The notes under the pieces: model-generated
Databases searched by the model: none
The model's input: the letters and a program-made list of their open reading frames with translations, nothing else
What the model was told of the DNA's origin: nothing
Assembly (NCBI RefSeq): GCF_045037415.1
Contig: NZ_CP173438.1
DNA: 64,000 bases
Source of the DNA: Escherichia coli
GTDB lineage: Bacteria; Pseudomonadota; Gammaproteobacteria; Enterobacterales; Enterobacteriaceae
Strand: one strand, 5' to 3'
In this document: positions 58,580 to 59,562 of the stretch, piece by piece
How positions within the stretch are numbered: position 1 is the stretch's first letter
Layout: every line of letters begins with the position of its first letter
Program-made: the position numbers and the translations under genes

Positions 58580-58607
58580 TTCCTGGGTATACTCAGGCAA
58601 TGATTAC

Positions 58608-58631
58608 GGCTGAATCTGGAGAGATTCAGCC
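58608..58631 (+). other. Perfect 9-bp-stem hairpin between the permease and the LysR gene
   Basis: GGCTGAATC-tggaga-GATTCAGCC; no T-run follows, so a terminator role is uncertain; could be an operator or RNA structure. Confidence 0.35.
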
Positions 58632-58656
58632 ACTTTACCACTGACCAGGGAGCCTT

Positions 58657-59562
58657 ATGTTCATCTCAGACGAAACGCTTCGTGTTATTCATCTGGTCGC
58701 CAGACACCAGAGCATTACCACCGCAGCCGAGCAGTTAAATAAAGTCCCTTCCGCCATCAGTTACACCATCAAGAAAGCGGAAGAGAGCCTGGGCGTTGAA
58801 CTGTTCATTCGTAAGGGACGCTATATTGAATTATCGCCAGCGGGAAGTTACTTCATCGAACATAGCAAAACTATTCTTGGCGACCTGGAAGCATTAAAGC
58901 GCAACACAGTGCTGATTCACGATGGTATTGAGCGTGAACTGACAATTGCGGTAAACAATATTATTCCTGGTGATTTGCTGGTGGCATTTATTCGAGATTT
59001 TGAACGGCAATTCACATCAACAACACTGACGGTAGATCTTGAGGTATACAACGGCTGCTGGGATGCGCTGTACAGTAAGCGTGCTGATCTGGTCTACGGT
59101 GCTCCTCATGCAGTACCAAGCAGTGAAGGCATCATTAGCGAACCGGTCGGACAAATGGAATGGGATTTTGTCGTCAGCCCACTCCACCCACTGGCAGCGA
59201 AGCGGCATCCATTAGAAAACAGTGAATTGCGTCATTATCCAGCGGTTTGTATCCGCGATACCTCCGTTAACTTCCCCCCGATGCAAGCCTGGTTGTTGGA
59301 AGGACAAAAACCCATTTTTGTTCCTGACTTCGCTACGGCAATCGCCTTAATAGAACAAAACGTCGGTATTGGTTATATTCCACATCATCTGGCATTACCG
59401 TTATTGAACAGCGGTAAATTGCTTAAAAAGCCAATGCGCGAACATAAACACGCCACCAAGTTATTTCTTGCCGCTCGTTCCGATGGTATGGGCAAAGCCT
59501 GTCAGTGGTGCATAGAATATTTAAGAAACCAGCAATTAATGACACGATTTGTATTTAATTGA
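58657..59562 (+). CDS. LysR-type transcriptional regulator
   Basis: 301 aa with N-terminal HTH (ITTAAEQLNKVPSAISYTIKKAEESLGVELF) and LysR substrate-binding domain. Confidence 0.8.
   Translation: MFISDETLRVIHLVARHQSITTAAEQLNKVPSAISYTIKKAEESLGVELFIRKGRYIELSPAGSYFIEHSKTILGDLEALKRNTVLIHDGIERELTIAVNNIIPGDLLVAFIRDFERQFTSTTLTVDLEVYNGCWDALYSKRADLVYGAPHAVPSSEGIISEPVGQMEWDFVVSPLHPLAAKRHPLENSELRHYPAVCIRDTSVNFPPMQAWLLEGQKPIFVPDFATAIALIEQNVGIGYIPHHLALPLLNSGKLLKKPMREHKHATKLFLAARSDGMGKACQWCIEYLRNQQLMTRFVFN

Follow-up and report, generated by a model that had tools for sequence, protein, structure and literature searches.

The LysR-type gene at positions 58657-59562 of the window, by which we mean the whole 64-kb stretch of Escherichia coli DNA that was analysed, is well supported by sequence comparison as the dedicated regulator of the seven-gene operon that precedes it, and not of the RpiR/tkt side of the locus. 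We describe the locus as an accessory nitrogen-catabolism operon of E. coli, which the LysR gene at its tail most likely controls. We give a probability of roughly 0.55 to the joint reading in which the LysR protein serves the upstream operon, a hairpin in the spacer between the permease gene and lysR acts as an RNA barrier at the boundary between operon and regulator, and a TATACT box provides a basal promoter.

This region of the window is an accessory island of E. coli, copies of which were found in 1555 of 5426 complete genomes. The 2.5 kb surrounding the hairpin are 100% identical to many complete E. coli genomes. The island was named 'GR 29' in a paper on an avian pathogenic (APEC) genome, without functional study (PMC12928451). 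In the RefSeq annotation, the genes that follow ysgA on one strand encode a cysteine hydrolase, a DUF2877 protein, FdrA, a DUF1116 protein, ArcC, an allophanate-hydrolase-related protein, a cytosine permease, and the LysR protein. On the 3' side of the LysR gene, RefSeq places an RpiR gene, then tkt, a ptsG-like gene, and hxlB on the other strand, and then metE.

The gene content of the operon, all of it on the + strand, is indicated by its protein domains. The first gene (51366-52034) encodes a cysteine hydrolase of the isochorismatase fold (Pfam Isochorismatase), for which the nearest family is the biuret amidohydrolase BiuH, at an NCBIfam score of 276 bits that falls below the cut-off of 370. 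It is followed by genes for an AllH-like (DUF2877) subunit (52040-52900; Pfam AllH and RefSeq annotation), an FdrA/AllF-like subunit (52995-54554; Pfam CoA_binding and Ligase_CoA, NCBIfam FdrA 496 bits), an AllG-like (DUF1116) subunit (54551-55975; Pfam AllG, start adopted from RefSeq), a carbamate kinase (55968-56924; NCBIfam carbamate kinase 378 bits), and a stand-alone protein with an allophanate-hydrolase C-terminal domain (56941-57330; Pfam AH_C). The last structural gene encodes an NCS1-family permease (57356-58579; Pfam Transp_cyt_pur). The AllH-, FdrA/AllF- and AllG-like proteins are read as transcarbamylase subunits. The closest characterised relatives of these enzymes are AllFGH and AllK of the allantoin pathway. 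The AllFGH/AllK enzymes are treated in PMC11326118.

The permease and LysR ORFs lie on the same + strand and carry the expected Pfam domains, which bears out the co-directional layout, with lysR after the NCS1 permease, that an earlier note on this DNA had described. The LysR protein displays an N-terminal winged HTH (Pfam HTH_1, 61 bits, residues 7-63) and a C-terminal substrate-binding domain (Pfam LysR_substrate, 98.8 bits, residues 89-292). The named NCBIfam families that score best over its full length are PunR (YdhB) and the AllS subfamily. The protein is PunR/AllS-like but is neither of the two, because it misses both curated cut-offs, with 288.4 bits to the PunR equivalog (NF008294; cut-off 345) and 215.2 bits to the AllS equivalog (NF007501; cut-off 372). 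NhaR was absent among the best 25 NCBIfam matches listed for the protein and is thus no close relative. AllS controls part of the allantoin regulon. The punR gene is divergent from punC, unlike the co-directional LysR gene described here.

A scan for the LysR protein in one genome per species, covering about 100,000 species, returned 47 loci, onto which the proteins of the window were mapped by tblastn. In 44 of these, the LysR gene adjoins this gene module and shares its strand. It stands at the tail of 31 of the linked loci as the gene right behind the permease, and in two more an insertion separates it from the permease; it follows arcC in a variant cluster in two more, and lies inside a variant cluster in one. 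The other eight loci (Vibrio, Photobacterium, Shewanella, Motilimonas, and Halomonas) have it at the head, again on the strand of the operon. All 44 are co-directional, and none displays the divergence that is typical of LysR-type regulators without defining them. The full order of hydrolase, AllH-like subunit, FdrA, AllG-like subunit, ArcC, AH_C, permease, and LysR on one strand recurs in many genera (Citrobacter, Lelliottia, Edwardsiella, Buttiauxella, Serratia, Rahnella, Paraburkholderia, Caballeronia, Silvimonas, and Dyella). On plasmids of the Klebsiella group, a variant cluster made up of a ring-opening amidohydrolase, an NCS2 transporter, AllH/F/G-like subunits, and ArcC also ends with the same LysR gene.

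The linkage of RpiR and LysR was seen in E. coli and in no other genus of the 47-locus scan. Meanwhile, the copies on ColV/IncF and IncK plasmids, which are 93-96% identical, hold the eight genes including lysR and nothing from the RpiR/tkt side, and their homology ends inside the last few tens of bases of lysR. We assign the regulator to the upstream operon because of this synteny, the co-mobility of the genes, and the box motif described below. The earlier note had found it unclear which side of the locus the regulator controls, a question that these comparisons largely answer in favour of the upstream operon.

Of 40 loci, 32 have a box of the form ATCAAA-N3-TTTGAT (T-N11-A) ahead of the first operon gene, where chance would give 8.6. 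It lies at fixed distances in tail-type and head-type loci alike. The signal appears with the N3 spacing, and a search with N5 spacing gave none. The distal operator candidate in the window is a 31-bp near-palindrome, CATACAGCATCAAA-AAA-TTTGTTGCTGTATG (51175-51205; an inverted repeat that is 93% complementary), and inside it lies the T-N11-A box ATCAAAAAATTTGTT (51183-51197), which matches the family box at 11 of 12 positions, the best match in the 64-kb window. A proximal and more degenerate box, ATGCAAAAATTTCGT (51251-51265; 8 of 12 positions), spans 51251-51283 with its direct-repeat copy. The direct repeat itself (51185-51214 and 51254-51283) has a spacing of 69 bp and an identity of 77%.

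The block that contains the proximal box is kept in the upstream regions of Enterobacterales, and this box is centred about 53-66 bp ahead of the -10 that is conserved in the operon promoter. This probable -10, AATACT on the + strand (51312-51317; WATACT in relatives), belongs to a conserved block (...TGAATACTC / TTATACT) that occupies the same place upstream of the first gene in Enterobacterales loci. As judged by motif, 51175-51205 and 51251-51283 are most likely the sites of the LysR protein, and we treat them as putative.

The spacer between the permease gene and lysR (58580-58656) is 77 nt long. It holds a perfect 9-bp inverted repeat, GGCTGAATC-TGGAGA-GATTCAGCC, at 58608-58631, and no T-run follows, both as the earlier note had stated; the sequence after the repeat, ACTTTACC, has 3 T in 8. 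One extra T-A pair extends the repeat to a stem of 10 bp with 5 G-C pairs and a GGAG loop (arms 58608-58617 and 58622-58631, + strand), for which the predicted RNA dG is -15.7 kcal/mol. This RNA stem-loop, backed by folding, a chance test, and covariation, is found 28 nt past the permease stop codon and about 25-26 nt before the lysR ATG. When the spacer was resampled with a first-order Markov chain, which roughly preserves its dinucleotide composition, a perfect 9-bp repeat with a loop of 3-8 nt appeared in about 0.1% of the resamples.

The inverted-repeat pattern occurs once in the 64-kb window when up to 3 mismatches are allowed, and the spacer is single-copy per island in the 1555 complete genomes that carry the island. 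A dispersed intergenic repeat of the REP/ERIC type was ruled out on these grounds, with one place per island and one match in the window. An Rfam 15 scan of 58300-59000 at E <= 10 returned three chance-level matches (E = 4-9), none of which overlapped the spacer. We also rejected a small ORF of 14 codons (58600-58644) as unconserved, with its ATG replaced by ATA in E. coli E69 and missing in Citrobacter. The chromosomal and plasmid copies share an identical run of 155 nt (58523-58677) that includes coding flanks. The 100% identity of the spacer between chromosome and plasmid was set aside as a sign of constraint, since the coding flanks are equally identical, and it may reflect recombination.

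Spacers from 13 Enterobacterales loci were aligned, and the 11 that share a format of 68-78 nt were used in RNAalifold. The consensus displayed an 11-bp hairpin in which 8 of the 11 pairs have changes on both sides. For the hairpin alone, 95.9% of cells are paired, and the observed values were reached by none of 500 shuffles, with slid controls at 17-45%. G·U pairs make up six of the cells; these can pair in + strand RNA only and are mismatches on the other strand. The stem reads GGCTGAAYC in Escherichia, Citrobacter, Lelliottia, and Edwardsiella, GTGRYCTGGYTC in Buttiauxella, and GTGGCTTAAC in Citrobacter sp. 18056; the lineages that could not be aligned have CTGCCAGC in Serratia and AAGGAAAYC in Rahnella. 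A strong hairpin is present in every tail-type spacer, even where the sequences are unalignable. A covariance model built from the 11 spacers and run against 930 kb of related loci found only the permease-lysR spacer of its training loci and weak reverse-strand echoes. The alignable motif is therefore limited to the clade, and the hairpins of Serratia and Rahnella are not homologous to it in sequence.

Meanwhile, the recognition helix of the LysR protein, VPSAISYT, is invariant in all Enterobacterales and Burkholderiales loci compared. Since the arms vary with pairing kept, G·U pairs are tolerated, and the recognition helix does not change, the comparison supports the hairpin as an RNA-level element under selection and not as an operator. 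The earlier note had listed a palindromic operator among its options, and the perfect dyad, 26 nt from the lysR start codon, could in principle be bound by LysR for autoregulation or by another dimeric protein. This reading is extremely improbable and is not supported by the comparison. The arm sequences are unrelated between genera that share one recognition helix, and the tolerated G·U pairs would be mismatched in DNA. The dyad holds no T-N11-A box: its symmetric T/A pairs have a spacing of N8 and N16 instead of N11, and no match to the family box at 8 or more of 12 positions was found within 58300-58700. The RNA-level options of the earlier note, a weak terminator or a processing or stability site, are supported in kind, and the choice of role is one that we infer.

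The hairpin of E. coli occupies the position at which relatives carry the terminator of the operon. It resembles Rho-independent terminators in being a stable stem-loop right after the last structural gene, and Rahnella, Silvimonas, Enterobacter sp., and the head-type Vibrio/Photobacterium loci carry canonical ones at the orthologous positions. A T-run of 5-7 T follows the hairpin in Rahnella, Enterobacter sp. CC120223-11, Silvimonas, and one Caballeronia, and in at least 4 of 7 head-type loci the permease is directly followed by a hairpin and then a T-run. The hairpins of the Escherichia/Citrobacter/Lelliottia/Edwardsiella/Buttiauxella clade differ from these, as they are not followed by a U-tract and are mostly nested in further predicted helices. 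Thus, the E. coli hairpin displays the stable G+C-rich stem-loop at the end of a unit that is expected of an intrinsic terminator, and not the U-rich tract. By a d'Aubenton-Carafa-type score, which serves for comparison only, it reaches -37, against +15 for Rahnella, +27 for nhaA-nhaR, and +6 for xapB-xapR. Its tail scores 0.9, and the tails of nhaA-nhaR, xapB-xapR, Rahnella, and Enterobacter sp. score 3.6-4.1. A consensus promoter/terminator scan of 50900-60900 called nothing in the spacer.

Because there is no U-tract, the E. coli hairpin would be a leaky terminator at most. An efficient terminator at the end of the operon, with lysR expressed only from its own promoter and not co-transcribed, would agree with the position of the canonical terminators of relatives and, in outline, with xapB-xapR. 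We consider it quite unlikely in view of the missing U-tract, the very low score, and the 25 nt between hairpin and ATG, in which no promoter fits; transcription from the sole candidate -10, which precedes the hairpin, would be terminated as well. The Silvimonas spacers (59-62 nt) are nearly all terminator, so that lysR must be expressed there through read-through or from a promoter upstream of the terminator. With hardly any room left for a promoter of its own, these spacers favour read-through.

The candidate -10 is the -10-like box TATACT (58588-58593, + strand), which lies 14 nt upstream of the hairpin. The most conserved non-coding bases of the spacer, G-TAT-A-(A/C)-T at its positions 8-14, make up this box, which reads TATAAT in six relatives. 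It was found at the same aligned position in 12 of the 13 Enterobacterales spacers, with an invariant TAT and 5-6 of 6 bases matching TATAAT. In Serratia sp. Ag1, in which the spacer is 48 nt longer, the box stays beside the hairpin and not beside the stop codon. No conserved -35 accompanies it in the Enterobacterales spacers, and the consensus scan made no call there. The conservation of the box suggests a weak sigma-70 promoter for lysR. At the other end of the spacer, the ribosome-binding region of lysR, CCAGGGAG (58645-58652, + strand), includes the SD sequence GGGAG (58648-58652), and a conserved GG.A stands 5-9 nt ahead of the lysR ATG in all 13 spacers.

Translation of lysR may also be the step at which the spacer acts, and a possible but doubtful reading is that three nested helices hide the ribosome-binding site of lysR in the polycistronic mRNA. 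RNAalifold places the hairpin inside a middle helix (GGCR/YGCC) and an outer helix (TTCCTGG/CCAGGGA), and the TTCCTGG segment directly after the permease stop (58580-58586, + strand; conserved in 11 spacers) is a possible anti-SD strand. Ribosomes ending at the permease stop, 1 nt upstream of the outer helix, would open it and couple the translation of lysR to that of the permease, and a transcript from the internal -10 box would lack the anti-SD strand and be freely translated. The presence of all three helices in the consensus is consistent with this, as is a column that changes T>C together with A>G in Edwardsiella and B. izardii. Furthermore, in 7 of 11 clade members the read-through RNA has a minimum-energy fold that pairs the SD with the post-stop segment, and in these members the predicted accessibility of the SD is 0.02-0.31 in the long RNA vs 0.23-0.69 in the short one. 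However, the outer helix fails its covariation controls, with 86 of 500 shuffles reaching its percentage paired and 34 of 500 its score for covariation, and in 3 of its 7 pairs the only departures are unpaired cells. It is missing in Serratia and Rahnella, and also from the minimum-energy fold of E. coli, which forms a local hairpin instead; in the E. coli sequence the SD accessibility hardly differs (0.40 vs 0.47). Conservation of the SD strand would be expected anyway. With controls that do not support it, the outer anti-SD helix was dropped as a finding.

A model in which the spacer is a dual-use RNA device, with an anti-SD strand, an embedded promoter, and a hairpin and middle helix that hold the fold, is unlikely. 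If true, it would amount to transcript-isoform-specific gating of a LysR regulator, with the polycistronic lysR translated only when coupled to the permease and the short transcript from the embedded promoter always translatable. It is very improbable that CsrA or another RNA-binding protein represses lysR translation as a dimer that bridges the GGA of the loop and the GGA of the SD, 30 nt apart, in the manner reported for nhaR. The E. coli spacer has the GGAG loop (58618-58621) and GGGAG at the SD that such bridging would use, and nhaR, the closest precedent in layout, is post-transcriptionally regulated by CsrA (PMC6307784). Among about 10 distinct lineages, 5 carry GGA in the loop (E. coli, Citrobacter On2M, Buttiauxella A111, B. 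noackiae, and Citrobacter 18056), and these 5 are related to each other. The loops of C. amalonaticus, Lelliottia, Edwardsiella, B. izardii, Serratia, and Rahnella have no GGA.

In the reading that we prefer, with the hairpin as a barrier, the LysR protein would be an inducer-dependent activator that acts about 7.4 kb upstream, at the two T-N11-A boxes of 51175-51205 and 51251-51283, and does not act at the hairpin. The hairpin would form in + strand transcripts as an intercistronic barrier, which may halt or pause some of the transcription, or else shield the operon mRNA at its 3' end. The level of the regulator would thereby be kept low and buffered from the strongly induced structural genes, limiting positive feedback; the tail-end layout implies such feedback and a need for its damping. 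The TATACT box would provide basal transcription of lysR, supplying the regulator before induction, and transcripts from this box would carry the hairpin as a stem-loop close to their 5' end. From these comparisons we infer that LysR activates the operon, that the -10 box acts as a promoter, and that the hairpin affects read-through or stability. The effect of the barrier may be small, given how far a hairpin with no U-tract falls below known terminators in score. With a promoter upstream of the hairpin, a barrier would also hit the transcripts of that promoter. A literature search for transcription-start maps of uropathogenic E. coli found nothing usable.

With these findings, a so far unnamed regulator is assigned to an uncharacterised catabolic module. 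The module is widespread among E. coli of the extraintestinal and avian pathogenic kinds, being chromosomal in about 29% of complete E. coli genomes and also present on ColV-type plasmids. The findings provide the module with coordinates for candidate operators, promoters, and RNA structure, and make a covariation-backed addition to the small set of tail-end LysR genes that stand behind a stem-loop. The conservation of the hairpin is unusually clean and the assignment of the regulator is useful, and the layout itself will not surprise a specialist.

Divergent transcription is the norm of the LysR family according to a review that also lists operon-internal exceptions (PMC11495319). The earlier note's view of the layout as unusual for a LysR gene holds in the statistical sense, but E. 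coli K-12 offers two precedents, nhaA-nhaR and xapAB-xapR, each with a stem-loop after the transporter gene. The tail-end LysR layout is thus already documented and constitutes no new principle. In nhaA-nhaR, as here, the gene of a LysR-type activator directly follows that of the regulated transporter on the same strand, with a spacer (59 bp, vs 77 here) that holds a perfect stem-loop and then the SD of the regulator. The nhaAR genes are described as a two-gene operon activated by its own product NhaR, with nhaR under post-transcriptional control by CsrA (PMC6307784). The differences are that the nhaA-nhaR hairpin is G+C-rich with a U-run, as its higher terminator score reflects, and that a single transporter gene lies upstream, compared with seven structural genes in the operon described here.

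The xapA-xapB-xapR locus of K-12 is alike in placing a catabolic gene, a permease, and a LysR-type activator on one strand, with a stem-loop right after the permease stop. Its xapB-xapR spacer of 251 nt has a canonical terminator and leaves room for xapR to have a promoter of its own, whereas the 77-nt spacer described here has no U-run and only the -10-like box upstream of the hairpin. A LysR regulator can also be the first gene of its own operon, as is the case of VirR in Rhodococcus equi (PMC11495319). VirR belongs to a different subfamily and its gene stands at the head, unlike the tail position in E. coli; it is the head-type loci of Vibrio, Photobacterium, Shewanella, and Halomonas that resemble it.

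The operon at window 51366-58579 encodes a BiuH-like cysteine hydrolase, AllH-, AllF- and AllG-like subunits, a carbamate kinase, a stand-alone allophanate-hydrolase C-domain and an NCS1 permease. The cysteine hydrolase scored 276 bits against the BiuH family, below the cut-off of 370. A comparable cluster of biuH, allFGH, allK and codB has been described in nitrifier genomes (PMC12625717). In urease-negative E. coli, the operon looks like an uncharacterised ATP-yielding route for a ureide, e.g., biuret or allophanate. A related cluster (locus L004, 1112-9903; also L025 and L026) occurs on plasmids in and around Citrobacter, namely in C. 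freundii, Klebsiella michiganensis and Huaxiibacter. It begins from a different enzyme, a ring-opening amidohydrolase (barbiturase/cyanuric-acid-hydrolase type), and also holds a transporter of the NCS2 family, AllH/F/G-like genes, a carbamate kinase and, at its tail, a LysR gene with a 67% identical product. In this cluster, a different entry enzyme is coupled to the common enzyme core and regulator.

In avian and human E. coli, conjugative plasmids of the ColV/IncF and IncK types also bear the module of eight genes, lysR included, and a single Klebsiella plasmid has it too, all at 93-96% identity (plasmid copies L002, 4066-12244, and L003, 4066-12246). The copy on pLH50 is mosaic: it hardly differs from the chromosomal allele over the stretch matching window 57174-58073, a sign that plasmid and chromosome copies may have recombined.

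Directly 5′ of the module lies ysgA, an arrangement shared by Citrobacter sp. On2M and two species of Buttiauxella (L006, L012 and L013, about 1565-2450); therefore, the insertion site adjoining ysgA is common to several genera. On the opposite side, homology to the plasmid copies and to other genera stops within the final tens of bases of lysR (window 59474-59800). No clear terminator was found 3′ of lysR, the best hairpin reaching -5.1 kcal/mol. The RpiR/tkt/ptsG-like/hxlB module to the right adjoins this LysR gene in E. coli only, and is a separate addition.

Upstream of the operon, TCACA motifs at 51129-51144 and 51223-51227 lie one ~30-40 bp upstream of each candidate LysR-type box (51175-51205 and 51251-51283). 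The first of these reads GATGA-N6-TCACA, a sequence resembling a CRP site and kept in relatives, and catabolite control is possible.

The spacer between permease and lysR contains an ORF of 14 codons (58600-58644; MITAESGEIQPLYH), which overlaps the hairpin at 58608-58631 and ends 12 nt upstream of the lysR ATG. As neither E. coli E69 nor Citrobacter retains the start codon, this ORF probably arose by chance, and we rejected it as a real gene. Between the permease and LysR genes, Budvicia aquatica has an insertion of 5.3 kb (L019, 4715-10001) and Serratia sp. DD3 one of 1.9 kb (L027, 8135-10001).
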